Shown piece by piece: positions 2,173 through 61,832 of a stretch of DNA of 64,000 nt. The position numbers and the translations under genes were made by a program. Origin of the DNA: an uncultured Pseudomonadales bacterium (GTDB lineage: Bacteria > Patescibacteriota > Microgenomatia > UBA1400 > PJMF01); the NCBI GenBank assembly GCA_964583795.1, contig CAZOWX010000002.1:14966-78965 (forward strand), read 5' to 3'. The number at the start of each line of letters is the position of its first letter. Positions within the stretch are counted from its first letter, which is position 1. Under the pieces are notes generated by a model. That model did not search any database and was not told the DNA's origin. It saw only the letters and a list, made by a program, of their open reading frames with translations.

Positions 2173-2391
2173 ATCACACCTCGTCATCCCGATGAAAATC
2201 GGAATCTGATCGAGGAAAACGTTATTCTTTTATTAACAAAGACATGTTGTGTGTGGTTCGGTTGTAGGGTTGTTGCACATGTCTCCACACATAACAACAC
2301 AACGATACAACAACTTAACAACTTCCACAGGATATTGTCGCATATTTTGCAGGAAAAAGGAAGTGGGCCTACACTTTGCACTTAATTGGGA

Positions 2392-14790: not shown

Positions 14791-14831
14791 CTTTGCATGA
14801 TTTTGATCCATTTTTGCGACTATGTGAGTGT

Positions 14832-17059: not shown

Positions 17060-17061
17060 CT

Positions 17062-18174: not shown

Positions 18175-18176
18175 CT

Positions 18177-18464: not shown

Positions 18465-18469
18465 ACTTC

Positions 18470-19102
18470 ATGAACACCGCAGACCTCGTCACTTTAGTGG
18501 ATGAAAGCGATCAAGTCATTGGATCGATGGATAAAGTTGAGGCCCACAAAGGGACAGCAATCCGACATCGAGCAATTAGCGTGTATTTATTTCAACAAAG
18601 AGATGACGGCGAATACCTGCTCATTCAGCAACGCAGTACCAAAAAAATTCTCGGTAGCCTGCAGTGGGCGAACACCGTTTGCGGAAATGTTTGGCCAAAT
18701 GAAAGTTATCATCAATGTGCAATGCGACGATTGTCGGTAGAGCTGGGAATTACTTCAGTAAACATTACGCCTATTCATAAGTTTGAGTATCACCTACAGT
18801 GTAGTGAACAATTCAGCGAATGGGAAATCGATCAAGTATTTGCAGGATGGTACGATGATGCAGTGACCGCAAATCCAGATGAAGTAAGAGACTTTGTTTG
18901 GGTGAAGTGGGAGGATTTAATAAACAAAAACAAGAATACACCATTTGATCATTCCCCCTTTAGAAGTAAAACAATTGAGATAACAAACCCAACAACACAA
19001 CAACTCAACAACACAACAACGCTTCAGCTGAGTCCTTGGTTCGTCCACATGCTTGATGATACCCAATTAGTTAACAAGCTAAATTCATTTGTAAACCAAT
19101 GA
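18470..19102 (+). CDS. idi: Isopentenyl-diphosphate delta-isomerase, type 1 (Nudix fold)
   Basis: HRAISVYLFQ...LLIQQRSTKKILGSLQWANTVCGNVWPNE...AMRRLSVELGI matches IDI-1 conserved blocks; carries an in-frame QQLNNTTT repeat insertion near the C-terminus. Confidence 0.7.
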   Translation: MNTADLVTLVDESDQVIGSMDKVEAHKGTAIRHRAISVYLFQQRDDGEYLLIQQRSTKKILGSLQWANTVCGNVWPNESYHQCAMRRLSVELGITSVNITPIHKFEYHLQCSEQFSEWEIDQVFAGWYDDAVTANPDEVRDFVWVKWEDLINKNKNTPFDHSPFRSKTIEITNPTTQQLNNTTTLQLSPWFVHMLDDTQLVNKLNSFVNQ

Positions 19103-19986: not shown

Positions 19987-20954
19987 ACAACGTTACTGTA
20001 TCCGCACCTGGCAAGCTATTACTTTACGGCGACCACTCTGTGGTGCACGGACATCCCTGTATCGTCACCGCTGTCGATCAGCGAATGTACGTTACCGTTC
20101 AAGAAAGCGCTAAGAGACAACTTTGCGTCATTGCTCCAGATGTTGACACACAAAAATACGAAAAAGCAATTGCGCAACTAGGAGAAGGGACTACTCCAAA
20201 GTCGGTTGCTTTTATCGAACATTGTTACAAGCGGTTTTTAGAAAAACATCCACAATCAACAGGGATCGTAGTTACTACCAAAAGTGATTTTTCGTCACTG
20301 TTTGGGTTTGGTTCCAGTAGTGCAGTGACAGTCGCGTTTGCGAAAGCGCTAAGCACACTTTACTCTGTTACACTCTCAAATAAAGAGTTATTTGATCTTT
20401 GCTATAGCGCTGTCATTGACGTCCAAGGAGTTGGCTCCGGGTTTGACATTGCCGTCGCAATCTGGGGTGGAACAATTTACTATGTCAGTCCAGCAAAAAC
20501 TGTCGAGTCAGTGAATTGTCCTGATTTACCGCTCATTGTTGGATACACGGGTGTAAAAGCCGATACGCCAACGCTCATTCGGCAAGTTGCGCAACAAAAA
20601 GAAAAACATCCTGAAGAAGTTGAACACATCTTTCAAAGCATCACTCAAATTGTTGATCAATCCAAAGTATGCTTAGAAAAACAAGACTGGCACAAAGCAG
20701 GAAAACTCTTGACAGAGAATCAGCAACTGTTGCGAAAACTGCATGTGAGTAGTACAGTCCTAGACAATTTAATCAATGCTGCCAATCTAGCCGGAGCGTA
20801 CGGAGCAAAGCTCTCGGGTGCTGGCGGTGGAGACTGTATGATTGCTTTTTGCGATGCCGCTCATCACATGAGAGTGATTGAAGCCATCCAGAAAGCCGGT
20901 GGCACTCACATGAGTGTGAGTACCAATGCAACGGGGGTAAGGATTGAGAAATAA
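19983..20954 (+). CDS. GHMP kinase, putative phosphomevalonate kinase
   Basis: SAPGKLLLYGDHSVVHGHP, GFGSSSAVTVAFAKA; second GHMP kinase in the operon, exact substrate not resolvable from sequence. Confidence 0.5.
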   Translation: MNNVTVSAPGKLLLYGDHSVVHGHPCIVTAVDQRMYVTVQESAKRQLCVIAPDVDTQKYEKAIAQLGEGTTPKSVAFIEHCYKRFLEKHPQSTGIVVTTKSDFSSLFGFGSSSAVTVAFAKALSTLYSVTLSNKELFDLCYSAVIDVQGVGSGFDIAVAIWGGTIYYVSPAKTVESVNCPDLPLIVGYTGVKADTPTLIRQVAQQKEKHPEEVEHIFQSITQIVDQSKVCLEKQDWHKAGKLLTENQQLLRKLHVSSTVLDNLINAANLAGAYGAKLSGAGGGDCMIAFCDAAHHMRVIEAIQKAGGTHMSVSTNATGVRIEK

Positions 20955-21100
20955 AAAAATAAATTACTTTAAATAATAGAGTCAGATCCTCGATCTCGAT
21001 GGCTTCACTTGGTACGTCCAGGGCGAACCAGGTTCACTCATCGGGTCAAACCTACCTCGCTGGTAGACAGGTATGACAACGTTGAAGGAGCCACATACAC

Positions 21101-22081
21101 ATGCAAAAAGCCACAGCCAAAGCCTCATCGGATATTGCCCTCATCAAATATTGGGGGAAGAAAGATGAAATACTTCGTCTGCCCGAGAACTCGAGTATCT
21201 CTCTCATCTTGGATGGACTGGATACCACAACTACGGTAGAGTTCCAACCAGAGCTAAAAAAGGACTTTGTCACCATTTCAGGTGAAATAGAAGAAGGAGA
21301 AGAGGGGCGGGTGATCAAACATTTAGATCGCATTCGCAAGTTAGCAAATATTTCTACTTATGCAAAAGTTGTCTCGGACAATAACTTTCCGAAAGCAACA
21401 GGCCTGTCAAGTTCGGCATCAGGTTTCGCAGCATTATCATACGCTGCATCAAAAGCGGCAGGACTCAATTTGTCAGAAAAACAACTCAGCATTTTATCCA
21501 GACAAGGTTCCGGCAGCGCCTGCCGTTGTGCTTGTGGGGGGATCGTGCAGTGGCTCGATGGAGACACTTCTGAAACTTCGTACTCAAAATCGCTTTACGA
21601 TTCTCACTATTGGGACATTCGTGATGTGATAGCAGTAGTTGATGAAGGGAAGAAAAGCATTTCATCAACGGCAGGACACACCACAGCTCGAAGCAGTATT
21701 TTCTATCAATCCAGGCAAGATAATTTGCCAAAAAAAATCAAGGCTTTAAAAAATGCTCTGAAGAAAAAAGACTTTACACAATTGGGAGAGATTGCAGAAG
21801 GAGATGCTCTTGAATTTCACACCATTCTACTCACTTCTCACCCTGCTCTCATTGCCTGGTATCCCGGGACCATTGAAGTCATGCTCGCAGTGCAAGCGAT
21901 GAGAAAAGAGGGAGTAGAAGCGTATTTCACTATTAACACAGGGTTTAATGTTCACATTTTGACTCTCCCCGAAAATGAAAAGAAAGTGCGATCTCGGTTG
22001 CAAAAATTACCTTTAGTGCAAAAAACACTGATCGCTAAAATTGGTGAAAAACCAAAGTTTTTAACAAAGCACTTATTCTAA
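21101..22081 (+). CDS. mvaD: Diphosphomevalonate decarboxylase
   Basis: ASSDIALIKYWGKKDE...NSSISLIL, GLSSSASGFAAL motifs. Confidence 0.8.
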   Translation: MQKATAKASSDIALIKYWGKKDEILRLPENSSISLILDGLDTTTTVEFQPELKKDFVTISGEIEEGEEGRVIKHLDRIRKLANISTYAKVVSDNNFPKATGLSSSASGFAALSYAASKAAGLNLSEKQLSILSRQGSGSACRCACGGIVQWLDGDTSETSYSKSLYDSHYWDIRDVIAVVDEGKKSISSTAGHTTARSSIFYQSRQDNLPKKIKALKNALKKKDFTQLGEIAEGDALEFHTILLTSHPALIAWYPGTIEVMLAVQAMRKEGVEAYFTINTGFNVHILTLPENEKKVRSRLQKLPLVQKTLIAKIGEKPKFLTKHLF

Positions 22082-22088
22082 AAAAAAC

Positions 22089-22634
22089 ATGTCTGAAACA
22101 ATTGTAGAAGTTACTGAAAACGGAGAGATGGTGGGCCCTATTGATAGAGATGTGGCTCATCAAAAAAATATCCCCCACGCAATTGTAATGATTTTACTTC
22201 GAACACCAAAATCATCACCCCAAGCATTGTTTCAAGTTCGAGGGAAAAATGTAAAAAAATATCCAGGGTTTATTACGTTAACAGCAACTGGTCATATCAG
22301 ATATGAGGAAGGAAGAACGCTACAAGAACTTGCAAAAACAAATGCAAAAGAAGAACTTGAACAGGAAACAAAAGGTTTCGTTCTTTTGGGAGATATCGGA
22401 AAGATTGATTTGAAGCTGACAACCCAAGGATTCTTTTCTGATGGAGAAGAACGACAATATGTCTTTATTTTTACTGCTGAGATAGAGCACTTGCCACAAT
22501 TACAATCTGCTAAAAACGAAGAGGTCGCTCAACTGAAAATGCTTACAATCGATGAGGTTTTAAAGCTCGCAAAACAAGGACAAGTTACACCATTTGCTTT
22601 AGAAGCATTACGGTTGCTTAAATTAATTGATTAA
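22089..22634 (+). CDS. Nudix-fold protein (degenerate Nudix box)
   Basis: Nudix-like core ...TATGHIRYEEGRTLQELAKTNAKEELEQE; function unclear. Confidence 0.4.
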   Translation: MSETIVEVTENGEMVGPIDRDVAHQKNIPHAIVMILLRTPKSSPQALFQVRGKNVKKYPGFITLTATGHIRYEEGRTLQELAKTNAKEELEQETKGFVLLGDIGKIDLKLTTQGFFSDGEERQYVFIFTAEIEHLPQLQSAKNEEVAQLKMLTIDEVLKLAKQGQVTPFALEALRLLKLID

Positions 22635-22657
22635 AATCTTTTTACTTTCATAAATAC

Positions 22658-23200
22658 ATGCCTCTCGATGACGCTACAGAGCTTTTTTATCAGGTAGATC
22701 AACACGATCGCGAGATTGGACGGATCACTAGAAAACAAGCCCACTCAAATCCTAACATCATTCATCGTAGTGTTGCCGCATTAATCATTAACCAAAATGA
22801 TGAGATGTTATTTCAAAAACGAAGTCTACAAAAAGATATGAACCCTGGATTTTGGAGCTATGGTGTAGGGGGACATGTAAACTATGGTCAAACATACCAA
22901 TCAGCCATAGTTAGAGAACTACAAGAAGAGTTGGGGTTAATTCATCCTCAAGTTCGATTCCTCAAAAAAATTCTTGTCCCGAGTGAAAAAGAAACAGAGA
23001 TGAAATCAGTATTTGAAGTGCGATTAAAAGAAGTACCTCACTTTGTTTTGGATTCTACAGAAGTATCCGAAGTACAATGGGTGAGTATTGATAAAATTAC
23101 TCATTTTGTGAACACCCATCCATTTACTGACTGGACCATCATGACATTAAAACATACCGGGTATTTAGATGAAAACTTCATACAAAAAGGAGAAATATGA
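22658..23200 (+). CDS. Nudix hydrolase
   Basis: Nudix box GGHVNYGQTYQSAIVRELQEELGL. Confidence 0.6.
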   Translation: MPLDDATELFYQVDQHDREIGRITRKQAHSNPNIIHRSVAALIINQNDEMLFQKRSLQKDMNPGFWSYGVGGHVNYGQTYQSAIVRELQEELGLIHPQVRFLKKILVPSEKETEMKSVFEVRLKEVPHFVLDSTEVSEVQWVSIDKITHFVNTHPFTDWTIMTLKHTGYLDENFIQKGEI

Positions 23201-23898
23201 CAAAAACAAGCTTATCTAACCCTAAACATATTGCCATCATCATGGACGGTAATCGACGCTGGGCAAAACAACACAAACTTAAAGCTTTGCAAGGACATCA
23301 GTATGTCACCGACAAAGTAATAGAACCATTACTCGATGCTTGTGTAGAGCGAGGAGTGGAGTACTTAACTCTCTGGGCATTTAGTACTGAGAACTGGCAG
23401 CGCGACAAAGCAGAAGTTGAAGGATTAATGAAAATCTTTCGCAGCGCTTTTTCAAAAAGTGCTCAAGATTTATACAAGAAAGGAGTGCGTCTCAATTACA
23501 TCGGTGACATGTCGAAATTCCCACCAGACATTCAAGAAGGTGTAAAAAAATGGATGGATATTTCAAAGAATAATACGAAGATAACAGCCACATTTGCTCT
23601 CAATTACGGTGGTCATGATGAAATTATTCGAGCAATTCACAAACTCAAAGCAATAAACATTGATTCGCAAACAGTGACAGCGGATCAATTTTCAAGCTTG
23701 CTTGATACTGCCAAATTGCCAAACCCCGATCTGCTTATTCGACCAGGGGGAGAACAACGGCTTTCTGGTTTCATGCCGTGGCAGACAGTGTACACCGAGC
23801 TATACTTCACCGATGTTCTCATGCCAGACTTTGATGAAAGCGAACTGCAAAAAGCAATAGAGGAGTATCAAAGTCGGTCAAGACGTTTTGGACGGTAA
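23197..23898 (+). CDS. uppS: Undecaprenyl-diphosphate synthase (cis-isoprenyl transferase)
   Basis: HIAIIMDGNRRWAK, ...RPGGEQRLSGF motifs. Confidence 0.9.
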   Translation: MTKTSLSNPKHIAIIMDGNRRWAKQHKLKALQGHQYVTDKVIEPLLDACVERGVEYLTLWAFSTENWQRDKAEVEGLMKIFRSAFSKSAQDLYKKGVRLNYIGDMSKFPPDIQEGVKKWMDISKNNTKITATFALNYGGHDEIIRAIHKLKAINIDSQTVTADQFSSLLDTAKLPNPDLLIRPGGEQRLSGFMPWQTVYTELYFTDVLMPDFDESELQKAIEEYQSRSRRFGR

Positions 23899-23912: not shown

Positions 23913-24680
23913 GCGTCATCCTCGACCCGACAGAGAAATCCTGGCTACCAGCCAAGAGAGATCAGTCGAGCATCGGGGATCCATAAAAAAATCCCTTTAT
24001 AGAATCGGTCAACGTGGCTATTTTATCCGGTCGTACCAGAGCTCAAAATTCATAGTTTCCTGAATTAACATTGCGAGCACACAGTGCTCTTTTGACAAAA
24101 AAAACTACAGCTTGCTTAAAATGTGTAGAAATGAATCCCTGATGCTCGTCAAAAGAAGGCAGCAATTGGGGTGATCTTGTGAATTCCTGATCCCGCAGTG
24201 CGGGATCAGGAATTCACGATCTGACTGAACTGATTTGAAAAGTGTATCAGTTCAGTCAAGGGTGACAACTTTTTGTTTTTTTTGCTTTCGAAACGGATTT
24301 GCTAATACCCTTTTAATGGATTTACATTGCCTTAATGTTTTTTCTTGATCGTTACCCAGACAAACTGTAGTTGGAGAAATTGGCTCATTGGGTGAAGTCG
24401 TCACGATCATTTACTCAAGATTTTAAACATTAAGGATTCTGACTTTAGATCCTGAATCCGTCATGCTCGTACCTCGCTTGACTGTCCAGGATGACGAGGA
24501 TTATCTGAATAAAAAAGGTTTTAAAACACCAATGGAGAAGTGGTTTAAAAATAAGTAGAGAAGTGGTCTTCTATTTTATTTTTATGATTTAATTTGTAAA
24601 AAAGTTATCAAAGGTTACTGACTTTAGATCCCGATTTTCATCGGGATGACGACAGCTATTCAACTTATCACTTACAACTT
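23913..24680. repeat. Gene-free ~1 kb region packed with dispersed hairpin elements (75-bp element copy; CCCGCAGTGCGGGA hairpin; GTCATCCCGATGAAAATCGGGATC hairpin; GGATGACAAC+T-tract module)
   Basis: Direct comparison with copies at 696-990, 13470-13600, 14638-14690, 27560-27640 and 44380-44990. Confidence 0.7.
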
Positions 24681-28395: not shown

Positions 28396-28442
28396 TGTTT
28401 GTTTGGTTGGTTGTTGGTTGTTAGAAAAATAGCGACAAACTC

Positions 28443-31544: not shown

Positions 31545-33266
31545 CTACTTAGCCACGCCTTGTTGAGCCCCTGCTCCCACTCCGTATTGACCAAGTACTT
31601 GGTTCATTCCTTGAGAGACCGTTGCTGTACTTTGGGTCAGCGCTCCAGACCCAGCATTAACCATGTCCAGGTAGTACTTGATGATGCGATCGTTAATCCC
31701 GTTATCGTGAGTGTATGCGTTGAGATACCACGACTTTGCATAGGGAGCATCTTGAATAAAGGCTCCAACATACTGTTTGTTTGCAATCTCGTCAGCCAAA
31801 TCCACTCGCGAGTACAACTCACCAAAGGCACGCACATTCGAGGCGTCAGCATATAATTTTTTCTCAACATCGGCAGAACTTAAATACTTGAGTAAAAGCC
31901 ACGAACCTTCTTTTTGACTGCTTTGTGCATTGACGCCCTCTGCCCAAAAACTTGCCCAAGTCGTACGCGGTTTATCAGCCAATTGAGGCACTGGCACCAC
32001 ATCAAACTGCAAGTTAGGATTTGCCGACTTCACTTCATGTGCTCTCCATGATGGCGCAAGCATCATCGCTACGTCACCTTTGGCAAAAGCGACAGTTGCA
32101 TTGGGAAGTGTTGTATCCCAGACACCGAGCTTTCCTGAAAAGTCAAGGTAAAAGGAGATCGCTTCCAAAGCTTGTTCGGATGTTGGATTTGCAGGATTAG
32201 CTCCATTTTGCAACATCAGTAGTGCAATAATTTCCGGAAAATGCTCAACATTTGAGGCCGTTCCCATGGCAATTCCACCACGAGTTATCTTCCCCCCTGA
32301 TTTAATAGTTAACTCTTGCGATAGTCGTTTTAACTCTTCCCAATCCTTTGGTGGAGTTTTGTTGGCAATCGTAAAAATGTCTTTGTTATAGTACAAGCCT
32401 AAACCGTCGATCATGAGTGGGATCCCTACCACATTCCCATTCAAGGTAAGCTGCTGTGTCGCTGTCGGATAAAAGGTCTTTGAGAACTCATCCTTAGTCA
32501 TAATTTTTTCTGGTAAAGGACTGAGCTCGTTTTTGAGCATTGGCACCCAACTGGCATGAAAGCGAAATACGTCTGGGCCACTGCCTTTGGAGATCTCGGC
32601 CTGCAAGCGCTCACGATAATCTTGATACGATTGTTGAGTGTATTGAACTTGATACTCCGGATTCGCTTTTTCAAAATCACTCAGCACCTGTTGCATGACT
32701 GTGGTTGGCTCCCAAAGCCCCCAATACACAATTGTTTTCTTTTTGACTGGAGCAGTGGTACTTGTTTTGGGGTTAGAGATTGACTTGTTTTTATTTAAAA
32801 ACCAATACGCTCCAAAGGCCAATAAACCAACAAACAATATCCCGAGCAATAAAAAGGGCAAAAACCGTAAAATGGATTTTTTCGGTTGATCAGCACCACC
32901 AGCACTACTTGGAGGGGGGGTACTTGCTTTAAATTGGGTCGCCGTTCCCACTACTGTGGCATTGGGCTTCACTGAACTTACCGGAGGTTGAGTCATTGAA
33001 GGCTTCATTCCCACTTGAGCTGAACCTCCAACCGATTTCACGGATGAGGCATTCATAACGGGATTGTTCGGGAAAGTTGTCGGAGTCGAGTTAACAGGAT
33101 TTGCACTCATGGTAGCACCAGCAGGGGCTCCGGGAGCTTTCGCCGAAAATGCGGCTGATGACGGTTGTGGGACACTTTGTTGAGCGCTTGCCATTCCCAC
33201 AGGGTTCCCTGGTTGAAATGGGTTCAATGGTTTTACGTTTGGGGTGGGAAGTGTATTATCAGGCAT
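31545..33266 (-). CDS. ABC transporter substrate-binding protein (family 1, sugar-type), N-terminal TM anchor and long low-complexity linker
   Basis: about 170-aa P/S/A/T-rich linker, TM, then MalE-like SBP domain (IVYWGLWEP...DVFRFHASW); no permease or ATPase adjacent. Confidence 0.55.
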   Translation of the reverse strand: MPDNTLPTPNVKPLNPFQPGNPVGMASAQQSVPQPSSAAFSAKAPGAPAGATMSANPVNSTPTTFPNNPVMNASSVKSVGGSAQVGMKPSMTQPPVSSVKPNATVVGTATQFKASTPPPSSAGGADQPKKSILRFLPFLLLGILFVGLLAFGAYWFLNKNKSISNPKTSTTAPVKKKTIVYWGLWEPTTVMQQVLSDFEKANPEYQVQYTQQSYQDYRERLQAEISKGSGPDVFRFHASWVPMLKNELSPLPEKIMTKDEFSKTFYPTATQQLTLNGNVVGIPLMIDGLGLYYNKDIFTIANKTPPKDWEELKRLSQELTIKSGGKITRGGIAMGTASNVEHFPEIIALLMLQNGANPANPTSEQALEAISFYLDFSGKLGVWDTTLPNATVAFAKGDVAMMLAPSWRAHEVKSANPNLQFDVVPVPQLADKPRTTWASFWAEGVNAQSSQKEGSWLLLKYLSSADVEKKLYADASNVRAFGELYSRVDLADEIANKQYVGAFIQDAPYAKSWYLNAYTHDNGINDRIIKYYLDMVNAGSGALTQSTATVSQGMNQVLGQYGVGAGAQQGVAK

Positions 33267-36144: not shown

Positions 36145-37452
36145 ATGAACCCACCCAGTCAACCGTTGACCGTTCTCGCTATAGAATCGTCCTGTGACGA
36201 GACTGCTTGTTCAGTAGTACAAAAAAGTGACAGTGAACCATTGGCTCACGTCCTCTCCTCTGTTACGGCAACCAGTCTGGCCAAGCATAAAGCAACCAAA
36301 GGAATTGTTCCTGAAATAGCTGCGAGAGAGCAGTTAAAGTATATATTGCCGGTTATTGAGGAAGCGCTGAGTAAACTCAAAACTCAAAACTCAAAATTCA
36401 AAATTGGTAGTCAAAAAACATCCAATAACCAATACCCAACAACCAATACCCAACTTGATGCAATAGCGGTTACCGTCGGTCCAGGATTAGCTGGGTCGCT
36501 CTTAGTCGGGATTGAGACCGCTCGTGCCCTCGCAATGGCGTGGAATCTTCCCATTATTCCGGTCAATCACATAAAGGCTCACCCGTATGCAAATTTCATC
36601 AAAAGTCAAAGCTCAACAAACGATAAACTGGTTCGTGCAGTTGTGAATGAACGATCAACAACTCAACAACTCAACAGCTCAACAACAGTCCCAAACTTTC
36701 CCCTTCTCTCCTGGGTAATCTCCGGCGGACATACCGATTTATTTCTAATGAACTCTCACACCGATATTCAACGACTTGGTGGAACTGTCGATGATGCGGC
36801 TGGTGAGTGCTTTGACAAGTGCGCTCGCGTTCTTGGATTTGATTATCCAGGCGGACCGTTTATCGAAAAATTGGCAGGGGGAAAAAGGAAGATCCCCAAT
36901 GGCCAAGCTCATCCCCCTCGCTTTGCACTTCAGGATGACAAAAACCATCATTTCGGCGAAAGCCGGGATCTATCCACAGTTGTTGTGTCAACAACCCAAC
37001 AACCGAACAACACAACAACTATCCCCCTCCCCCGCCCGCTCTTTTACGAGAAGACTCTGAACATGTCCTTTTCCGGTCTTAAGGCAGCTTTTTTGCGATC
37101 ATTCAACGAAAACAAAGAAACAATCCCACTAGAAGAACTTCAGCACAAACTCGCAACTGCGTTGCAAGAAGCAGTCACAGACATTATCGTCAAACGTACC
37201 CAGCAAGCACTCGAGCTCTATCCGCAAGTTCGCTCAATCATCGTCTCTGGTGGCGTCAGTGCAAATCAGAAATTAAGAGAAAAACTCGACACTCACACCC
37301 AACAACCCAACAACACAACCACTCAACAACTGACAATGCACTTTCCCTCTATTGATTACTGTACCGACAACGCAGCAATGATCGGCAGCTACGCGCTGTT
37401 TCACATGGATGAAAAAACGGATTGGAAAAATGTAAAACTTGACTTAAGCTAA
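36145..37452 (+). CDS. tsaD: tRNA N6-adenosine threonylcarbamoyltransferase TsaD, with several in-frame repeat insertions
   Basis: LAIESSCDETACSVV N-terminus, HIKAHPYA, GGVSANQKLREKL; about 95 aa longer than typical TsaD because of low-complexity inserts (NNQYPTTNTQ; STTQQLNSSTT; HFGESRDLSTVVVSTTQQPNNTTT; HTQQPNNTTTQQL). Confidence 0.8.
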   Translation: MNPPSQPLTVLAIESSCDETACSVVQKSDSEPLAHVLSSVTATSLAKHKATKGIVPEIAAREQLKYILPVIEEALSKLKTQNSKFKIGSQKTSNNQYPTTNTQLDAIAVTVGPGLAGSLLVGIETARALAMAWNLPIIPVNHIKAHPYANFIKSQSSTNDKLVRAVVNERSTTQQLNSSTTVPNFPLLSWVISGGHTDLFLMNSHTDIQRLGGTVDDAAGECFDKCARVLGFDYPGGPFIEKLAGGKRKIPNGQAHPPRFALQDDKNHHFGESRDLSTVVVSTTQQPNNTTTIPLPRPLFYEKTLNMSFSGLKAAFLRSFNENKETIPLEELQHKLATALQEAVTDIIVKRTQQALELYPQVRSIIVSGGVSANQKLREKLDTHTQQPNNTTTQQLTMHFPSIDYCTDNAAMIGSYALFHMDEKTDWKNVKLDLS

Positions 37453-39912: not shown

Positions 39913-42678
39913 ATGCAGAAAAACTTTGACCACAACCAATCAGAAACCCACACTTACGAACTTTGGGAAAAAGCTGGAGCATTTAATCCGGACGAGGTAA
40001 AAAGGATGAGGGAGGATCAAAAAGGACAGATCCCGTATCGCCACGCTCCTCACGGTCGCTTGGCAGTACGGGATGACAAAGACGATTTAAAAAGTGTATC
40101 GTCTTTGTCAACACCACACTCCAAGCGTCAACAACTCAACAACTCAACCACTCAACAACCATTCTCCATCATCATGCCTCCTCCCAATGCCAACGACCCG
40201 TTGCATGTGGGTCACGCGATGTTCATCAGCATCGAAGATATTTTGATCCGCTATCATCGCATGAAGGGTGATGACACAATCTGGATCCCAGGGACTGATC
40301 ACGCTGGTATCGAAACACAGTTCGTCTTCGAAAAAAAACTTGCCAAACAAGGTAAAAGCCGGTTTAACTTTGATCGAGACACTCTCTACAAAATGATTTG
40401 GGATTACGTCCAAGAAAATTCAGGAGTCGCTGTCGATCAAATGAAAAAGCTTGGTGCAAGTGCCGACTGGTCACGGTTTACGTTCACACTCGATCCATCC
40501 GTCGTAAAGTTTGTGACAAACACTTTCAAAAAAATGCATCAGGATGGACTCGTTTACCGCGATCAAAAACTGGTGCATTATTGCGTCAAATGTGGTACCA
40601 GCTACTCAGAACTTGAAGTGGTTCACAAAGAACAAACGGATAAATTGTATTACCTCAAATATGGCCCGTTTACTCTTGCCACAACTCGGCCTGAAACGAA
40701 GTTTGCCGACACTGCGGTGGCAGTTCATCCAGATGATACTCGCTACAAAAAATATATTGGAACTGAAATTGAAGTCGAGGGACTGACCAGCAAGTTCAAG
40801 ATGAAAGTCATCGCCGACGAGTATGTCGATAGTGAATTTGGAACAGGTGTCGTGAAGATTACTCCCTACCACGACTTTAACGACTACGAAGTTTGGCAAC
40901 GACATAAAAATGAAATTCCTGCACCAAAACAAGTCATTGGCTTTGACGGGAAGTTAACCGCTATTGCTGGAAAGTATGCTGGAATGAAAGTCAAAGCTGC
41001 TCGAGATCTGATTGAAAAAGACTTGCAAGAAAAAGGCTTACTGGAAAAAGTGAATAACAACTATCTGCACACTGTTGGGGTATGTTATCGCTGTGGAACG
41101 GTTCTCGAACCACTCCCCTTGCCTCAATTTTTTATCAAAGTAAAAGATAAAACCAATAATCTGACACAAAAAGTGTTGGAAGTTTTAGATAAAAAAGAGA
41201 CCAAGATTTATGGAGCTGGTCGAGAAAAAATTTTAAGAAACTGGTTGGAAAACCTTAAAGATTGGAACATCAGTCGCCAAATTGTGTGGGGAATTCGGAT
41301 TCCGGTGTGGTACCCGGTGGAAGGAAATGAAGAGAAAATTTCCGTGTCGTTCATCAATCAAAAAGGAGAGTTTCAAAAAAACGAAACCGTAAAACAACGA
41401 CTCGACGAAGGCTACACGATAGAAGAGATGAAGAAAGGATTGCAACAAGTCTATCCGTCAGCTGAATTGGATTTTGTTGTGGCAACAGAGGATCCTGGAA
41501 TCGATAAGTCAAAGGGCAAAAGTCAAAAGTCAAACAGCACAACAACCCAACCACACGACCACACGACAACACGACCACACGACAACACGTCCACAATGTT
41601 GGAGTCTGCTACAAGCTACAAGCCACAAGCTTCAAGCAAACGCGCCTCATCGGTTTCCTACTTTCCAGAAACCGACACGTTTGACACTTGGTTTTCATCA
41701 GGACAGTGGCCAGTCGTCACTTTAAAGACCAACAACTCAACAACACAACAACACAACAACGACTCTGATTTCGACCGGTTTTATCCAACCACTGTCATGG
41801 AGACTGCCTACGACATTTTGCTGTTCTGGGTAATGCGTATGATGATGATGGGCATTTACTTGGAAAATAAAACACCGTTTGAGCATGTCTACTTGCATGG
41901 GCTCGTCCGCGATGAAAAAGGTCAAAAGATGAGCAAGAGTAAAGGCAATGTGATCAACCCACTGGAGTTTGTGAGTAAATACGGCGCGGATGCCGTCAGA
42001 ATGGCTCTGGTAATGTCCTCTACTCCGGGTTCTGATAGCGCTGTGGGGGAAAATAAAATCAAAGGCATGCGCAACTTTTCCAATAAGATTTGGAATGCCT
42101 CTCGTTTTGTAATGATGGCATTGGACGAACAGAGTAATGCCTCTTATTCAAGAGAGAATCTGCAAATGGAAAAGTCAAAAGTCAAAAGTCAAAAGTCAAG
42201 AGACGACCAAGTTTCTTTTCCTCAGCTGGAAAATCAGAATGATATTCAAGAAGGAAACCGTCATCCCGGCGAAAGCCGGGATCCAGTGAAGTCTGCAACC
42301 GATGTTCAAAAAGACGACGGGGTCCTTCTCCGCCAGTCGGCGGATCAGGATGACAGTGCCTTTAAAAAAAGACTTCAAGAAGTATCTGACGCTGTCTCAG
42401 ACCATTTAGAAAAACTGCGTCCCGGTCAAGCTGCAGAGCTGGTCTACAACGAGTTTTGGCACTGGTTTTGTGATGTGTGTATCGAAGATCAGAAAAAAGG
42501 CAATCTTTCGCGAGGCGCTTTGTTAGAAGGGCTGATTACTTTTCTCAAACTCCTCCACCCATTCGTCCCATTCGTCACTGAAGCACTCTGGCAAGAGCTC
42601 TGGCAAGGAGGTGATGATACGATGAAAGAAATGATGGGAAGTGGGTTGCTAATCGTGGCAGACTGGCCAGGGAAGTAG
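39913..42678 (+). CDS. valS: Valine--tRNA ligase with in-frame repeat insertions
   Basis: HIGH-region PPPNANDPLHVGHA, KMSKS as KMSKSKGN, editing and anticodon-binding regions; inserts QQLNNSTTQQ, KSQKSNSTTTQPHDHTTTRPHDNTST, NNSTTQQHNN, KSKVKSQKS, RHPGESRDP. Confidence 0.9.
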   Translation: MQKNFDHNQSETHTYELWEKAGAFNPDEVKRMREDQKGQIPYRHAPHGRLAVRDDKDDLKSVSSLSTPHSKRQQLNNSTTQQPFSIIMPPPNANDPLHVGHAMFISIEDILIRYHRMKGDDTIWIPGTDHAGIETQFVFEKKLAKQGKSRFNFDRDTLYKMIWDYVQENSGVAVDQMKKLGASADWSRFTFTLDPSVVKFVTNTFKKMHQDGLVYRDQKLVHYCVKCGTSYSELEVVHKEQTDKLYYLKYGPFTLATTRPETKFADTAVAVHPDDTRYKKYIGTEIEVEGLTSKFKMKVIADEYVDSEFGTGVVKITPYHDFNDYEVWQRHKNEIPAPKQVIGFDGKLTAIAGKYAGMKVKAARDLIEKDLQEKGLLEKVNNNYLHTVGVCYRCGTVLEPLPLPQFFIKVKDKTNNLTQKVLEVLDKKETKIYGAGREKILRNWLENLKDWNISRQIVWGIRIPVWYPVEGNEEKISVSFINQKGEFQKNETVKQRLDEGYTIEEMKKGLQQVYPSAELDFVVATEDPGIDKSKGKSQKSNSTTTQPHDHTTTRPHDNTSTMLESATSYKPQASSKRASSVSYFPETDTFDTWFSSGQWPVVTLKTNNSTTQQHNNDSDFDRFYPTTVMETAYDILLFWVMRMMMMGIYLENKTPFEHVYLHGLVRDEKGQKMSKSKGNVINPLEFVSKYGADAVRMALVMSSTPGSDSAVGENKIKGMRNFSNKIWNASRFVMMALDEQSNASYSRENLQMEKSKVKSQKSRDDQVSFPQLENQNDIQEGNRHPGESRDPVKSATDVQKDDGVLLRQSADQDDSAFKKRLQEVSDAVSDHLEKLRPGQAAELVYNEFWHWFCDVCIEDQKKGNLSRGALLEGLITFLKLLHPFVPFVTEALWQELWQGGDDTMKEMMGSGLLIVADWPGK

Positions 42679-44379: not shown

Positions 44380-44990
44380 GTCCACTTCCGTCATCCCGAC
44401 GAAAGTCGGGATCTAAAGTCAGAGTTCTTTGGGATTGTTTGAAAAAATATTCTTTTAATTCCTCAACGGTTTTTTCATTGTATTGAAATTAAGGAAATGG
44501 ATCCCGGCCTTGCGCCACCGCTAAAGCTTTATGCGACACGCGGTCGCCGGGATGACGACTTTTTAGTTTTTTTGCTTTCGAATAAGTTTTTCACAAATTA
44601 AAACGCAGTATCCTGTTGGAATGCGAAATAGTATTGAGATAAAAAGGAAACGCTTGTCATCCTTGCGGAGGCGAGGATCTGACTGTAAATGGCTTTGGAG
44701 TCAGGTCCTCGATACTTGGCCCGCCCTGGGCGGGCCAGGTTCAAGGATGACAACTTTTTTATTGTAGTGGCTTTTGAAATAGTTTTTCTCAATCATCTCT
44801 CTGTATTTTCCGAAATGACGACTTTTTAGGTTTTTTGCTTTCAAAATACTAAGTTTTCCTCAATCAACTCTCCGATTTCGACGGCTTTACTCGATCGAGC
44901 TGAGCTCAACGGGTTCATTCATCGGGTCAAGGATGACGACTTTTTTATTTTTGCGGTTTCGAAATTGACTTTCTAGGCTTGGTCCAGACC
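44380..44990. repeat. Cluster of at least 5 hairpin plus T-tract modules (...GGATGACGAC TTTTTAGTTTTTTTGCTTTCGAA) and GTCATCCCGACGAAAGTCGGGATC hairpins in a convergent intergenic gap
   Basis: Tail modules at 44550-44600, 44745-44800, 44812-44860, 44932-44985; hairpins at 44390-44425, 44500-44550, 44700-44745. Confidence 0.7.
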
Positions 44991-46039: not shown

Positions 46040-46225
46040 TGTTGTTGGGTTGTTAGTTGTTAGGTTGTTAGGTTGTTAGAGACAAGCGAGCGCATATTGT
46101 ACCAAGTTTTTTAGAGAATCTCTAGAGGGTGTCGCTTGCTTTGAGTTGTTGGGTGATTGAGTTGTTAGGTTGTTAACAACTTAACAACCCAACAACTTGC
46201 TCGCCGGCGAGGCGAGCACAACAAC
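46040..46225. repeat. GTTGTT(A/G)GGTTGTT repeat tract plus palindromes (GTTGTTAACAAC; GCTCGCCGGCGAGCGAGC) forming the rplY 5' leader
   Basis: mRNA-sense reads CAACAACCTAACAACCTAACAAC... immediately before the rplY ATG. Confidence 0.7.
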
Positions 46226-49200
46226 TCATCTGAACTTCACTCCTGCAAAACTGTGTTCACCTCCCCAGAAAGAAAACTCAATTTTATCGTTGGAAATCTT
46301 GGCGTCAGGAGCAATGACCGTAGGGACGTATTGGGAGTCGTAGAAAATCGACACTTTTGTCGGAGTTGCTCCCGTTCCAGGCTGTTTTTGATCAAAAAAT
46401 GCAAACGAGGCTTGTTTGCCAATCGACTCTTCTTCATACTCTAGAACCACTTTAGCGGTCGTTTGCGGCAACACCTCGATATAGGCACCCACCACCAGTG
46501 AGTTTTTGTCTTGATATTGTTTTATCTGATCAGCCGATAACTGTTGGTCATTCACCACCACGGCTTTGAGTCGGACGCCTTGCGGCAAGTACCAACGGAC
46601 GTAGTTCTTATACGATCCACCCGGCCAGCTATTGGTATCGCTGCTGTTTTCATAGTTAATAATCCGCTGATGGGTAATCACGTCTGGCTTTATCTGAATC
46701 ATGTGGTCAACTTTTTTCTTAATCGCTATGTTGACTTTATTGACCCCCACATTGGAATCAATTTGAAACACTCTGCTCACCAGACACTGATCGGACACAA
46801 TCTGGGTCGGACAGGGCGGCTTGATGACACTGCCAGTCCACCCCAAGGATCCGACCGTCGTTTCTGTCGCAAGATCTTGAAAAGAGAGCGTCATCTCGGC
46901 CTGCTTGAGTTGGGAAGAAACCGCGTCCATCAGCTTAAGCGTATGCGCATCATCCACGGTCTTGAGTTTGTTGAGTGCCGATTCGAGGACGCTTGAGACA
47001 AAATCGGGTTTGGATATTGGCTGCGAAGTACTCACCAAACTTGTTTTTGCATAGAAAAAAGCCCGATCGGAAAGGTTGTTTTCAGTCACATGCTCATCGT
47101 CGTAAGCTGCAACAGTCACACCATCAAGCGCCCCCACGATTTTAGCTAATGAGTTGGTATTCAGCCCCACGACGGCATCAATCTTGGTATTGAGACCTTT
47201 TTCTAAAAAGAACTGCAGCTGCTTTGCGCTCACTTCAAAATCTGGATTCCAGTTCCCATCGCGCAAAAACCAGTTCTTTTCACCTAAATATTGCGTCACT
47301 TCTTCTGGAGGAATGACTTCACCGCCAATCCCTTCAGAAAGAGAATCTGGTGCAATCATCTTCGCATCCGAAATCTTGCCGTTGGTCAGTGTCAATAATG
47401 CAACGCCTTGAACAAAGCCTCCAGTAGCGCGCAACTCCTGAGCATCTTGAAGCACGATGGCAATCGTCTTTTTACTTTCTTTTGTGAGCGTGTTGGGAAT
47501 CACTTCAGTAAGCTGTTGCCCCACCAAAACTTGTCGTCGAACCTCAGAAATCGACTCGATCAGCTCTTGTTGTTGTTGGGCGCTGAGCTGTGTTTGAAAA
47601 AAGATGTTTGACTCTGGCCCCTTGAGCTCCCCTTCAAGCAATGAGAGCTGCTTATACACGGTGTCGGTTTGGCCGAGGCTAGGAATAAGGGTCCCAACAG
47701 GGTCACCGTCAACCGCACCTACAACTTGTCGAATTGTTTTGATGTGACTGTGTTGGATAACTTGGAGCGCTTGACTGAGTGTTGAAAGCTTTTGAGCGAC
47801 CTCTAGATGCGCATATGACTCAGAAAAAACCCCTGTACCCAACACGATTGAATACAAAGACAACTGTTTTTCCAATGCGCTTTGCCAAAACACTAGTTGT
47901 TTCACATCCTCTTGTGTTTTGGCACTCCCCTGCTCAAACCCCAAGGCAACTTGTTTCGCAAAATGGACCATTTTAGAACTGGAGAAAAAGAAAAAACCGA
48001 CTAAAACCAGGGTTGTTAAAACAACCGCTGTAAGAAACCAAAACAAACCTTTCTTTGCGGCATACCACTTCCCTACCCGAGTATCTTTACCAAATAAGAC
48101 TTGAATTGCACTGAGCTGTTGTTTTTTGTGTAACCCTTTGGGTGCTGGAGGCTTCATCGCTCCAGAAAACATGTTGGCAATTTTTTTCTCAAGCAGTTTT
48201 TTTTGATGATCTTCTTGAACAGTTTGTTCTTGACGCTTCTCTTGTTCTTGATGTTGTTCGTGTTGTACTCGAGCAGCGGCTTGAGGGCTTACTTGGGGGA
48301 CAATCCGTTTTATTTCCGGTTCAGACGGTAAGTGATGTTCTAAACTGGTTGAAAACTGGTGCAAAATGATTTTTGACCGCCGAATATCTGGCATCGGCTG
48401 CTCTGGAATCAACACTGGTGGGCGCTTCACTTGAGTAACCAGGGGCGCGGCAACGGTCACTTGAATCGATTTTTCTTGAATACTTTTGGGCACTAAATCG
48501 GCAAGCGGCAAGTGAAGTGCCTGCGGTAAAACAGGCTCTTTCTTCACCGACGGCTGTTCACTCACAGGTTTTGACAGGGTTACCACTTTTTCTCGAGCAG
48601 TGGTGAGGGTATCCTTTGGTTTTTCTGGTTGAGTAGTTTGTGCAAGAGTGTGCTTGTTTTTCTCTTCTTGAACAGTGCTCTTTTCTTTGACTGGCTGTGG
48701 TTCTTTCTCTGGCAGCGGTGCCTCTTTTGGCTCTGGAGGCTGCTGCAGCGACTTTTCAACTACTGGCTTTTGTAGAGGAATTCTCGGCTTAGGAATATCC
48801 GATGCTTGGTACTCCTCCACTTTTGGCGGTTGATAGTGAAACTTTGCCTGAACGATAAGCTCAGAAACAAGTGATTCTTCTGTCACTTGGGAGGAAATGG
48901 CAAACTCTTTAAAATCACCACTCCACAAAGCGCTCACTTCTTTTTGCAACAATACATCCTCGCCATGAAATCGGCGCCGAAACTCTGACTGAATCGACTT
49001 AAGAACTTTTTTGGCAAGTAAAGGCTTTTTGCTCACCACTACTCTTCTCTTCCCTCCTCGAGGATCAAAGCTTAGGCTCACTACTGCCTCAAGCATTTCA
49101 GTCTCTTTGATAAACCCCAGTTGCTCAAAGGTAAGCGGAAAGCGCGATTGGTGTAAAAAGTGAACAATTTGCTGATAGTTCAGATTAAAGAACTCATCCG

Positions 49201-49615: not shown

Positions 49616-49862
49616 GGGCAGGACACGGGCTAGTTTATTGGTTGGTTCGTTGCTTGGTTGATTAGTTACAATATTGTACGACAAGAGCAACTGGTATTTC
49701 TAAGAACATTCGCTCTCAGCTTTTTTTTGATATAACTGTCCAACCAATCAACAAAGCAACGATGCAACTAACACCATCTTACGGCAAAAAGGGGGGAAGA
49801 GGGGAGAGGGAGTTGTTCGTTGTTAGTTATCGAATGAGCGTTGTTGCAAGCATTCTTATCTG

Positions 49863-50510: not shown

Positions 50511-50978
50511 CTACAGTGAGTCTTTTGCGGCATCAAGCGCTTCGTTGACCAATCGGTCTGCATCTTTATTTTCAGCACGGGGGACGTGCGCAAAAGAAGC
50601 AGAGCAGGGGAGTGTTTCTAATAACGTTTGAGCTTTTTTTACCAATGATTGCAAGTGAGCCTCTTTGACTTTCCAGTGTCCTTGTACTTGTTCAACCACC
50701 AACTTCGAGTCCAATAAAAAACGCACGCTCTTAACTGTTTGTGACTGACAAAATCGGCTTACCCACTCAATTGCGTAGAGAAGCGCCTCATACTCTGCAA
50801 CGTTATTGGTTTGTTCACCGATATACGCTTTGTGCTCGTGAACCAATGACTGGCCGGCGTGAATCACAATCCCAATTCCGGCTGGCCCAGGGTTACCACG
50901 CGCGCCGCCGTCGGTATGAATTGTGAGGGTCAGTTGTTGGGTTGCTGAGTTGTTGGGTTGCTGGGAAGGAGTGGTCAT
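50511..50978 (-). CDS. rnhA: Ribonuclease HI
   Basis: HTDGGARGNPGPAG, NNVAEYEALLYAIEW, HVPRAENKDADRL motifs; N-terminal 12 aa (PSQQPNNSATQQ) come from a CAAC repeat. Confidence 0.85.
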   Translation of the reverse strand: MTTPSQQPNNSATQQLTLTIHTDGGARGNPGPAGIGIVIHAGQSLVHEHKAYIGEQTNNVAEYEALLYAIEWVSRFCQSQTVKSVRFLLDSKLVVEQVQGHWKVKEAHLQSLVKKAQTLLETLPCSASFAHVPRAENKDADRLVNEALDAAKDSL

Positions 50979-52751: not shown

Positions 52752-53022
52752 ATGACGAGTTTTTTCCTTTGGGGAAAAATATCACAACAAGTTGTTTTTG
52801 TGATAACTGAGCCTTTGCTTTCAGCAAGACGCTTTTCATTCGTCGCGAAAGAATGTGTCGTTGAACGGCCAACTTACTCACTTTCTTTGGGACAATGATG
52901 GCAAACTGTGTGTCTTGTGATGGGCGCCACCAAACTTGAAAACTCTGGGCGTTTTGACGTTTTGCGGTTTTGAAAAACTGCGTTTCATGACGAAGGTCAA
53001 GCCTATTCTCTTGAGGAAGCAT
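52705..53022 (-). CDS. rnpA: Ribonuclease P protein component
   Basis: Small basic protein between rpmH and yidD; overlaps yidD start. Confidence 0.7.
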   Translation of the reverse strand: MLPQENRLDLRHETQFFKTAKRQNAQSFQVWWRPSQDTQFAIIVPKKVSKLAVQRHILSRRMKSVLLKAKAQLSQKQLVVIFFPKGKNSSYDQLAKEVQNITHRL

Positions 53023-54560: not shown

Positions 54561-55146
54561 AGTTGCAGCACTTTTGAAAAAACTTTGTGTAAACGGTCTG
54601 TTCGTAGTATAGAGAACAAAAGATTTTTTACAAAAGTATTTTTTAGTGAATCTTACACAAACAGTACTAAATAAATATAAACTAGTAGTAGGTAATAGTA
54701 GAACTGTGGAGAAAACGAACAACTGCGTGAAGCTGCTCAACAAGTTCGGGAAAAGTTTTTGTGTAAAACCTGAGGAAATGTGTGGAAAACCTCAGTGCAT
54801 AAAAGGTGTGAAACCCGTCCTTTGTGTGAAACCAGAATGAAGTAAACCACATTCCCCCAATGCCAATGCACCAATTCACACCGCTTATCAACAGGGTTTT
54901 CCCCAAAGTTTTGCACAATAGTGGAAAACTAGCTTATAAAACTCAATAAACATTGGTTTATCAATGTAAAGTTAACTCTATGTCGTAAGTTTGCGAATAG
55001 TTGCAGACGATGAAAATTGTTTTGGTCGGTGTTTGGTGCACTGACAAGAATTTGTGAAGACTCTTTTTGTTGAAAATCAACTGAGGGGAGAGATTGTGAT
55101 GCAGGGAAACAAAGTCCTCTGAGGGATTTGAAAATTGTTTTTTCAC
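54561..55146. other. Putative oriC (dnaA-dnaN intergenic region)
   Basis: At least 6 DnaA-box-like 9-mers (tgtggaaaa, tgtgtaaaa, gtgtgaaac, tgtgtgaaa, ttatcaaca, agtggaaaa) plus AT-rich tract 54600-54690. Confidence 0.6.
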
Positions 55147-56664: not shown

Positions 56665-56774
56665 AACTTTTTTGATGTTTTTCTTGAGGAAACTCGAAGA
56701 AAAAGCAGATGAGGGCAGTCAGTTTTCCACAATATACACATAGTTTTACACAATTGGCAAGAGGGGGTTTAGTA

Positions 56775-56830: not shown

Positions 56831-56860
56831 TTGGTGACTTGTTCCGATGGAGTGTCTGAG

Positions 56861-61553: not shown

Positions 61554-61832
61554 TTTTTAGGTTCTAGGTTATAGGTGCTAGGTTCTAGTTATTGTTGTGT
61601 TGTATTGAGTTTATCCAATTACTCCAAGTGGCTTTGGAATTTGATTGGGTGTTTTTGTTGTTCGTTATTTGTTGGCTTGCCTCGCCGTAGCGTTTCGCGA
61701 AGGCGGGGAGTTAAGATGTTCTTCTTACTTTATCAAGAAAAGGAGTTTTGACCAAGTGACGAAGTATGTCTTAAGAGAAAAAAGTGTCAGTAAATAATGA
61801 CGACTGAAGACTGATTTCTGACAACTTGTTGG

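Follow-up and report, generated by a model that had tools for sequence, protein, structure and literature searches.

How does one short C/A-rich repeat come to lie in frame inside several housekeeping genes of a single bacterium? The question is raised by a 64-kb stretch of contig CAZOWX010000002.1 (hereafter the window), in which tsaD, valS, idi and rnhA all carry copies of a CAACAAC-type block. A first, sequence-only reading took the block for a single discrete element that, like the Rickettsia palindromic elements (RPEs), inserts in frame into such genes. We found that the blocks are only the commonest unit among many mini-arrays of period 7 or 8, and not one discrete element. In the reading that we favour, and which we regard as likely without being secure, the CAACAACN blocks are the most frequent kind in a population of short tandem-repeat cassettes that is specific to the lineage. 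Rather than a new mobile element, the phenomenon is an unusual variant of the known heptamer short-repeat systems, with RPE-like consequences. As for the host, its best TsaD and IDI homologues come from metagenome-assembled genomes (MAGs) of Patescibacteria (the candidate phyla radiation, CPR) of the Microgenomates type, the nearest TsaD homologue showing 58% identity.

The repeat itself is beyond chance. Allowing up to two mismatches, CAACAACYCAACAAC has 31 matches in the window versus 0.53 expected, a number which none of 100 shuffles reached. The common unit has a period of 8 nt, i.e., CAACAACN in four copies over 31 nt, and such blocks occupy at least 10 loci. With arrays called by Tandem Repeats Finder (TRF) and motif counts compared with shuffles, about four copies of an 8-nt unit were detected in tsaD (36655-36686, 36989-37019 and 37297-37330), valS (40128-40159 and 41730-41760), idi (18986-19020) and, on the minus strand, rnhA (50932-50965). 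The arrays and their translations bear out the presence of the element in frame in all four genes, as well as the Q/N/T/S-rich nature (QQLNNSTT type) of the encoded peptides: STTQQLNSSTT, STTQQPNNTTT, TQQPNNTTTQQ, RQQLNNSTTQQ, NNSTTQQHNN, PTTQQLNNTTT and SQQPNNSATQQ. These look alike because three octamer units (3x8 = 24) run through all three codon phases, so that every frame gives a circular permutation of QQ(L/P/H)NN(S/P/T)TT. The gene identities also hold (TsaD, PF00814; ValS; RNase H; IDI, NF002995), and the catalytic motifs are undisturbed, with HIGH and KMSKS intact in ValS and HxxxH, SGGHT and CTDNA in TsaD. The list of copies given by the sequence-only reading had to be revised. In valS, 40120-40165 and 41720-41768 are indeed the repeat in question, whereas 41560-41600 is a different octamer, ACCACACG x7; outside these genes, 49625-49680 is merely a degenerate CA-rich stretch and 61560-61625 consists mostly of another heptamer, GAACCTA. 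Missing from that list, in turn, were six or more mini-arrays of other units in tsaD and valS.

The wider population emerged from a scan of every period from 2 to 24 (at least three copies, 80% identity) against order-2 Markov shuffles. Only periods 7 and 8 were in excess, with 11 and 14 loci versus 0.25 and 0.5 in the shuffles, while periods 5, 6 and 9-11 stayed at background. As in dispersed heptamer/octamer repeats, tandem units of 5-11 nt are thus present beyond chance (25 period-7/8 loci versus fewer than one expected), with a favoured unit at many loci and a patchy distribution. Altogether the window holds about 30 mini-arrays made of at least 15 unrelated units, e.g., GACACCT, TACCCAA, AAACTCA, CCAATAC, AAGTCAA, AAAAGTC, ACCACACG, GCTACAA, TCCATAA, GAACCTA and TTCACTG, all with one architecture of about 4-5 copies over 28-37 nt. 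They are localized in genes, 5' leaders, promoter zones and terminator-like hairpins; about half are upstream or intergenic and the other half lie within conserved genes, five in tsaD and six in valS. Their matches are imperfect (80-95% in TRF), and in several of them a two-unit block of 14 or 16 nt gives a better description than the single unit (rnhA, 100% versus 80%; the array at 41553, 96% versus 86%; idi, 94% versus 88%). A weak three-copy array in rnpA (52948-52973) was considered as an insertion and rejected, the protein matching its Pfam profile end to end. We also observed a second array family (TTAACTG / TTCACTG / CACTATT) at 13617-13652, 14749-14784, 26271-26302/26398-26433 and 56775-56818, located 5' of EamA, HMG-CoA reductase, DsbA-like and dnaA genes, two copies of which are 100% identical over 36 nt.

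The arrays within tsaD are distributed over four insert regions, given here with the per-residue confidence (predicted local distance difference test, pLDDT) of the corresponding residues in an AlphaFold model:

36145..37452, plus strand: tsaD gene, 435 aa, four insert regions (PF00814, 6.5e-66)
36371..36454, plus strand: tsaD insert 1, AAACTCA x4.4 heptamer array followed by a CCAATAC/14-mer array, encoding KTQNSKFKIGSQKTSNNQYPTTNTQ (TRF; pLDDT <50 at 87-100)
36599..36687, plus strand: tsaD insert 2, AAAAGTC-like remnant (36599-36623) plus TCAACAAC x4 (36652-36687) (pLDDT <50 at 171-179)
36885..37025, plus strand: tsaD insert 3, composite of about 140 nt homologous to valS insert 1 (pLDDT <50 at 248-289)
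37295..37331, plus strand: tsaD insert 4, CAACAACN x4, encoding THTQQPNNTTTQQ (coil at 387-396, pLDDT about 77)

The protein is longer than usual, as had been claimed, with 435 aa against 341-358 aa in insert-free relatives and 328-342 aa in solved structures. Its model (predicted TM-score, pTM, 0.80; TM-score 0.86-0.88 to YgjD/TsaD crystal structures) is of low confidence only at residues 87-100, 171-179 and 248-289, which together with the coil at 387-396 are the four insert regions. The inserts thus map to loops, as the sequence-only reading had expected of surface positions, and are predicted to surround an intact, confidently folded core. In-frame insertion at surface positions is what characterizes RPEs, and here too the function is presumably preserved. 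In the TsaD alignment, insert 1 is missing from most relatives, and the insert sites are variable in length in many of them. TsaD and IDI of other Patescibacteria (relatives P0002, P0005, P0010, P0013, P0020, P0022, P0137 and P0142) carry different repeat- or palindrome-derived peptides in the same loops, e.g., GSRIEERESRI..., QSGSPHLTRSDRT... and RRPGSSPYDYAQGRHRSRHAQDD. To judge from these sequences, the TsaD/IDI loops appear to be recurrent landing sites across the clade.

Whether the genic copies are insertions at all was examined in valS, where four syntenic relatives (L001, L002, L124 and L127, together about 77 kb) allow codon-level alignment. The gene order common to them and the window is CTP-transferase, SBP, VanW, TsaD, ValS, L25, DUF4012, RNase H, Jag and YidC. 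The relevant features of valS, rnhA and idi are as follows:

39913..42678, plus strand: valS gene, 921 aa versus 751-765 aa in syntenic relatives (Pfam class I tRNA synthetase and anticodon-binding domain; alignments)
40005..40160, plus strand: valS insert 1, composite, double hairpin 40030-40127 then TCAACAAC x4 at 40125-40160 (absent in four relatives)
41506..41637, plus strand: valS insert 2, abutting AAGTCAA x4, CAACAACC/ACCACACG x7 and GCTACAA x4 (TRF; absent in relatives)
41728..41763, plus strand: valS insert 3, CAACAACN x4, net +24 nt (8 aa) versus four relatives (codon alignment)
42168..42357, plus strand: valS insert 4, AAAAGTC x4.3 (42168-42204) plus a complete miniature inverted-repeat transposable element (MITE) of about 100 nt (42257-42357) (absent in relatives)
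50932..50965, minus strand: rnhA N-terminal array, CAGCAACC CAACAACT as a pair x2 on the mRNA strand (+14 aa versus the L002 orthologue)
18985..19023, plus strand: idi array, CAACAACN x4, better described as a 16-mer x2.2 (linker before the C-terminal helix)

All four valS insert regions are missing in the four relatives while their flanks are conserved, and insert 3 leaves an exact +24-nt signature at 41728-41751. Likewise, the RNase H of L002 is devoid of the 14 N-terminal residues, and the orthologues of L127 and L124 begin at the same short N-terminus. The claim of insertion into genes therefore stands for valS and rnhA, where it is lineage-specific. It is not supported for idi (NF002995, 133.7 bits versus a cut-off of 127; the gene lies within a full mevalonate operon): the site is a variable, partly T/N/Q-rich linker in relatives, to which the array adds about 4-6 aa, and the alignment suggests a case nearer to remodelling of an existing variable linker than to clean insertion. 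The idi linker, together with the varying length of the TsaD insert sites across many relatives, is what could be said for regarding all these segments as ancestral low-complexity linkers shaped by amino-acid or codon preference. Yet the 8-nt DNA periodicity crosses all three codon phases, which selection at the protein level would not produce, non-coding DNA contains these DNA units as well, and the valS inserts are absent from four relatives with conserved flanks. For valS and rnhA this explanation is largely refuted, and overall we hold it to be very improbable.

A more serious competitor is a discrete non-autonomous mobile element of the RPE or MITE kind, of which the CAACAAC block would be all or part and which would be moved by a transposase encoded elsewhere. 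It draws on the recurrence of one unit at at least 10 loci, on the absence of the inserts from syntenic relatives and on hairpin elements in tsaD and valS. We found that tsaD insert 3 (36885-37025) aligns with valS insert 1 (40005-40160) over about 140 nt. In both composites a hairpin module with TCGCTTKGCASTWCRGGATGACAAA precedes the CAACAACN x4 block; in tsaD insert 3 the module (GGATGAC and the CGGCGAAAGCCG stem-loop) is joined to the repeats by a GTTGTTGTGT arm. Moreover, a complete element of about 100 nt lies in frame within valS insert 4; its inverted ends are CCGTCATCC / GGATGACAG, and it has a hairpin with a GAAA loop (the CGGCGAAAGCCG stem-loop). Compared with shuffles, the folds of tsaD insert 3 (z = -4.7), valS insert 1 (z = -6.0) and valS insert 4 (z = -4.0) are stable. 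The motif GGATGAC occurs 22 times in the window versus 5.8 expected, and the inverted ends GTCATCC...GGATGAC mark a mostly intergenic family of MITE-like hairpin elements; an Rfam search of the window found no family. Elements of this kind were seen at 702-986, 13424-13560, 23915-24650, 44390-44940 and 42257-42357, one complete copy being translated within valS, and the GAAA-loop stem CGTCATCCCGRCGAAAGYCGGGATC recurs at 2182, 36942, 42255 and 44385.

The pure arrays behave differently. Comparison of the flanks of idi, tsaD-2, tsaD-4, valS-3 and rnhA reveals no shared flanks, terminal inverted repeats or target duplications, and neither a transposase nor a reverse transcriptase is found among the approximately 60 open reading frames (ORFs) of the window that were scanned. 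To this extent they show none of the defined ends, target-site duplications and cognate transposase that mark MITEs and repetitive extragenic palindromes (REP). Where RPEs are palindromes of about 100-150 bp with a stable hairpin, the pure arrays are direct repeats of 31-37 nt, and significant folds among the inserts are confined to the composites at 36885-37025, 40005-40160 and 42250-42360. The RPE likeness proposed earlier consequently fits in outcome, and best for the two palindromic composites of about 140 nt, but not for the non-palindromic pure arrays. That at least 15 unrelated units have one architecture, and that the single gain observed so far (see below) is a homology-seeded copy between two arrays of one gene, also speaks against a mobile element, which we consider possible but doubtful.

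Arrays of the same periods also occur in related genomes. In 875 kb from 87 related loci we counted 87 period-7 and 10 period-8 arrays, against 7, 2, 0, 1 and 0 arrays of periods 6, 9, 10, 11 and 12. Their distribution is uneven: 58/88 related loci are array-free while others reach 10-22 per 10 kb, and a single tsaD gene (locus L125) contains eight. The recurrent units differ genome by genome, 55/75 of the relatives' arrays are in long ORFs, and the window stands out by its many octamers. No period-7/8 array was found in the 77 kb of the four syntenic relatives. When genome contigs were scanned for CAACAACNCAACAACNCAACAAC, the matches listed were mostly Bacteroidota arrays (3-13 copies) plus one Pacebacteria locus; exact CAACAACN arrays are, among the same matches, sporadic in other phyla and in one Pacebacteria MAG. 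The latter, a distant GC-rich CPR genome (Candidatus Pacebacteria MAG, 58% GC; L009 5251-5287), has CAACAACT x4, which encodes ATQQLNNSTT at the C-terminus of a NUDIX-like protein and also forms the sufC leader. The unit may have been favoured there independently, or it may have spread horizontally.

How a new array arises could be followed in one case. Since no relative of the window was found beyond about 81% ValS identity, insertion polymorphism was followed between other pairs of relatives. Array lengths do not differ between contigs of 99.3-100% identity; one gain was resolved between L194 and L203/L198, whose ValS proteins are 89-90% identical. The valS gene of L194 carries a derived +24-nt insert (3x8; 8 aa) where L203 has a single unit AAGAACTCAAGACA, and the 8 aa are absent from L203, L198 and eight other aligned ValS sequences. 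The new array matches 36/38 nt of an L194-specific variant of an older array located 513 nt downstream in the same gene. From the sequences compared, the best reading of this event is that a template was copied, by ectopic conversion or a template switch, into a seed homologous to it over 12-14 nt. Three units would then have been added together without the reading frame ever being broken. There are hints of a similar process in the window, i.e., the +24-nt gain at valS-3, CAA-rich seeds that relatives carry where the rnhA, valS-3 and idi arrays lie, 86% identity between tsaD-2 and valS-1 including flank, and a variant CAACCACTCAACAAC common to 37316 and 40145.

On this basis the cassette reading can be stated as a sequence of steps. 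Cassettes with a unit of 7 or 8 nt in about 4-6 copies (25-45 nt) would pepper the genome. Each copying event would need an existing array as donor and, elsewhere, a lone unit offering about 7-14 nt of homology as recipient; several units would be gained at once through a template switch out of register or through ectopic gene conversion. The small palindromic MITE-like hairpin elements may travel with arrays or settle beside them. A genic copy would be kept only if the added length is a multiple of three (e.g., 3x8 = 24 nt), if the G/T-poor strand is sense, giving no stops and Q/N/T/S/P/H/K-rich peptides, and if the protein is disordered where it falls, be this a loop at the surface, a linker or a terminus. 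Segments encoded in this way would be tolerated passengers rather than functional domains. Non-coding cassettes, i.e., those before starts, in promoter zones or in inverted hairpin pairs, may be co-opted as unstructured CA-rich leaders or terminators.

Three other routes to such arrays were considered. A general rule that four copies represent one seed plus three added units fits two clean sites, but it was dropped, since intergenic arrays have the same length and genic heptamer arrays vary continuously over 25-44 nt. A diversity-generating retroelement, suggested by the AAC codons, was rejected: the arrays are of 31 nt, the scanned ORFs contain no reverse transcriptase and there is no sign of adenine-specific variation. 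For telomerase-like addition we encountered no supporting evidence. A further idea, that the arrays are phase-variable contingency loci switched on and off by gain or loss of units, has in its favour unit lengths not divisible by three and a perfect (GTTG)14.5 tract at 56860-56917. Yet the hosts are single-copy essential genes (valS, tsaD), not the non-essential genes in which unit number is switched, the arrays are short and imperfect (80-95% matches) and near-identical genomes do not differ in array length. We give this idea practically no credence.

The strand bias was one of the features by which the sequence-only reading had set the repeat apart from RPEs. It holds without exception in genes: the C/A-rich, G-poor strand is sense in 14/14 arrays inside confirmed genes, two apparent exceptions having been dismissed as one spurious ORF and one array upstream of the real start. 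The bias tracks transcription and not replication, because plus-strand idi, tsaD and valS and minus-strand rnhA, which are on the same replichore, all have the CA-rich strand as sense. What did not hold is the need for an insertion mechanism to produce it. The 11 genic units are free of stops in the sense reading, with a grand average of hydropathy (GRAVY) of -0.7 to -2.6, whereas the antisense reading has stops in 5/11 and a GRAVY of about +1 to +3.5; the sense peptides are composed of Q/N/T/S/P/K, and the antisense ones give stops or V/L/C/W. Among units found only outside genes, 7/13 carry stops in the sense reading. The relatives agree: in their 51 genic arrays, A exceeds T on the sense strand in 41 (p = 1.5e-5), GRAVY averages -1.22 in sense versus +0.85 in antisense (p = 8e-8), and the antisense strand has a stop in at least one frame in 40/51. 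Coding constraints suffice for the genic strand bias, since the antisense reading gives stops and hydrophobic peptides.

Arrays outside genes pose a separate question, for which the following features are relevant:

46041..46082, minus strand: L25 gene, 5' leader with CTAACAAC x5, array end 7 nt from the ATG, no Shine-Dalgarno motif
46144..46198, unstranded: inverted array pair (GT arm and CA arm) forming a long hairpin just 3' of the DUF4012 gene (z = -7.2 for the fold of 46100-46230)
28396..28424, minus strand: 5' leader of a CsoR-like repressor gene, AACCAAC-type array abutting the ATG
2261..2322, unstranded: intergenic inverted pair of CAACAAC-type arrays beside a GTCATCC hairpin element (2182-2216)
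61555..61588, minus strand: PrgI-like gene, upstream GAACCTA x4.4 (heptamer array), array end 2 nt from the ATG

In the intergenic region 2195-2340 the fold is no better than that of shuffles (z = -0.05). The L25, CsoR-like and PrgI-like starts next to arrays are all without a Shine-Dalgarno motif, the distance from array to ATG being 1-7 nt for the CAACAAC-type arrays of the first two. At some other starts the array is found at -60 to -27 and a TATAAT-like box is located 6-13 nt upstream; the genes in question are probably leaderless, and the arrays there would be promoter-proximal. In many genes the ATG is preceded at only 6-13 nt by a TATAAT-like box, with no Shine-Dalgarno motif (36145, 13679, 31545-33266 on the minus strand, 33320, 43768 and, on the minus strand, about 5817), and only 18/65 called starts have a Shine-Dalgarno-like motif, which suggests widespread leaderless mRNAs in the window.

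These positions invite the view that the arrays are functional cis-elements. They might offer, in a register of 7-8 nt, binding sites to a protein of the cold-shock, S1 or KH type that recognizes single-stranded nucleic acid, or else act as unstructured CA-rich translation enhancers; the genic copies would be spill-over or would tune translation. Several arrays do end 1-27 nt before starts that have no Shine-Dalgarno motif (the L25, CsoR-like and PrgI-like genes), the sense strand is G-poor in 11/12 informative upstream arrays, and the TAACTGA sets of Beggiatoaceae, 2-6 copies directly 5' of starts, have been proposed to bind S1, Csp or CsrA (PMC4679880). Yet the arrays are not kept at orthologous sites in relatives, their units vary between loci and genomes, several upstream arrays at -60 to -27 of apparently leaderless starts would probably be outside the mRNA, and the binder is only putative. 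We judge this view unlikely.

Several observations weigh against the cassette reading itself. The G-poor sense bias of the upstream arrays (G<C on the sense strand in 11/12 informative arrays within 192 nt of a start, p ~0.006, two copies being identical and not all therefore independent) cannot be explained by codon selection; it hints at a role on the RNA level or at a process linked with transcription, neither of which the cassette reading calls for. Nor do copying and coding selection account for why the periods are confined to 7 and 8, or for the upper limit of about 4-6 copies in arrays outside genes. Ordinary replication slippage from local seeds could make some of the arrays. The copy event was seen in relatives and none within the window's own lineage, and the 64 kb represent only a part of the genome. 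There is also a more far-reaching proposal: a lineage-restricted activity (polymerase, primase, repair enzyme or retroelement-like factor), present in array-rich Patescibacteria and absent in array-free sisters, would write cassettes of about 30 nt in a 7-8-nt register, G-poor cassettes being used by the cell as Shine-Dalgarno-independent leader or promoter modules and the protein loops being collateral. At present we consider it improbable.

Long simple sequence repeats (SSRs) with units of 5-11 nt, and especially dispersed heptamers, were surveyed by Mrazek et al. (2007); as far as that survey is presented in PMC4679880, units divisible by three dominate in coding DNA. TAACTGA heptamers occur in Beggiatoaceae, Cyanobacteria and Bacteroidetes as sets of 2-6 copies 5' of starts, the copies in Beggiatoa ORFs being few and peripheral (PMC4679880). 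Together with the cyanobacterial short tandemly repeated repetitive (STRR) sequences, these heptamer systems are the closest known. They share with the window short tandem 7-nt arrays of 2-6 copies at many loci, a genome-specific favourite unit, a patchy phylogeny, many sets directly 5' of starts without a ribosome-binding site and exclusion of the stop-bearing orientation from ORFs; the TTAACTG / TTCACTG family of the window even resembles TAACTGA. In contrast to them, the host here belongs to the genome-reduced Patescibacteria, octamers are as common as heptamers, and about half of the arrays are within conserved essential genes, up to 5-6 per gene, adding 77-160 aa. Elhai and colleagues are said to have described in 2008 very small repeats of Nostoc, with tandem heptamers and small hairpin elements, even inside conserved genes; their sequence families and phylum reportedly differ from ours.

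RPEs, compared here by architecture, are likewise repeats inserted in frame into housekeeping genes at fold-compatible sites with an added peptide, and the palindromic composites of about 140 nt in tsaD and valS and the 100-nt valS MITE have an RPE-like size. The pure CAACAACN blocks differ in being 31 nt long, non-palindromic and devoid of element ends, the host phylum is another one, and the strand asymmetry, which the sequence-only reading had named as a difference from RPEs, is explained here by coding constraints. Borg repeats (PMC9879509) are similar in their genome-specific formation, A/C-enriched coding strand, occurrence in ORFs and intergenic DNA, hydrophilic disordered segments and flanking partial repeats. 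Yet in Borgs every ORF repeat has a unit length that is a multiple of three, and nearly all units are unique (PMC9879509), while units of the window are of 7 or 8 nt, recur at many loci and keep the frame only through the total added length. For Patescibacteria, no description of such arrays came up in our literature searches.

The remainder of the window contains further features of note. The segment 50511-57045 is a chromosomal origin region with rnhA, jag, yidC, yidD, rnpA, dnaN and dnaA all on the minus strand, and the GC skew turns at about 53-54 kb, near dnaA. On the 5' side of dnaA there are a perfect DnaA box TTTTCCACA (about 56723-56731), an octamer array TTTCACTG (56775-56818) and the perfect (GTTG)14.5 tract, which reads (CAAC)n on the dnaA strand. 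In dnaN (53460-54743, minus strand), about 60 residues precede the beta-clamp N-terminal domain when the gene is called from TTG; as this extension holds a 15-nt repeat (54616-54645), the true start may be further downstream. A complete mevalonate operon (14793-23898) encodes HMG-CoA reductase and synthase, thiolase with its OB-fold partner, two GHMP kinases and diphosphomevalonate decarboxylase, and the region also has three NUDIX/IDI-like paralogues (18470, 22089 and 22658) and uppS. Six tandem small ORFs match T4SS_pilin, four above and two below the Pfam cut-off, and are accompanied by a TraG/VirB4-like ATPase and a PrgI-like protein (regions 5942-6409, 9444-11514, 57046-58929 and 60456-61553). 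By homology, this set probably represents a type-IV-secretion-like or conjugation-like surface apparatus adjoining the origin.

Why bacteria have tandem repeats of 7 bases, and here also of 8, has been a standing question ever since cyanobacterial STRR sequences became known and long SSRs were surveyed in 2007. The clade described here is a natural experiment, its syntenic sister genomes being array-free or having up to eight arrays in one essential gene, and comparative genomics of array-free and array-rich sisters could thus pinpoint the responsible factor. By one-step copying of +24 nt, units that are not multiples of three could become established in essential genes without passing through a lethal frameshift. 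In genome-reduced Patescibacteria, 77-160 additional repeat-derived residues are tolerated in disordered loops of TsaD and ValS, which bears on the protein-length and "insertion" statistics of this radiation, on annotation and homology modelling, and on the origin of new disordered regions.

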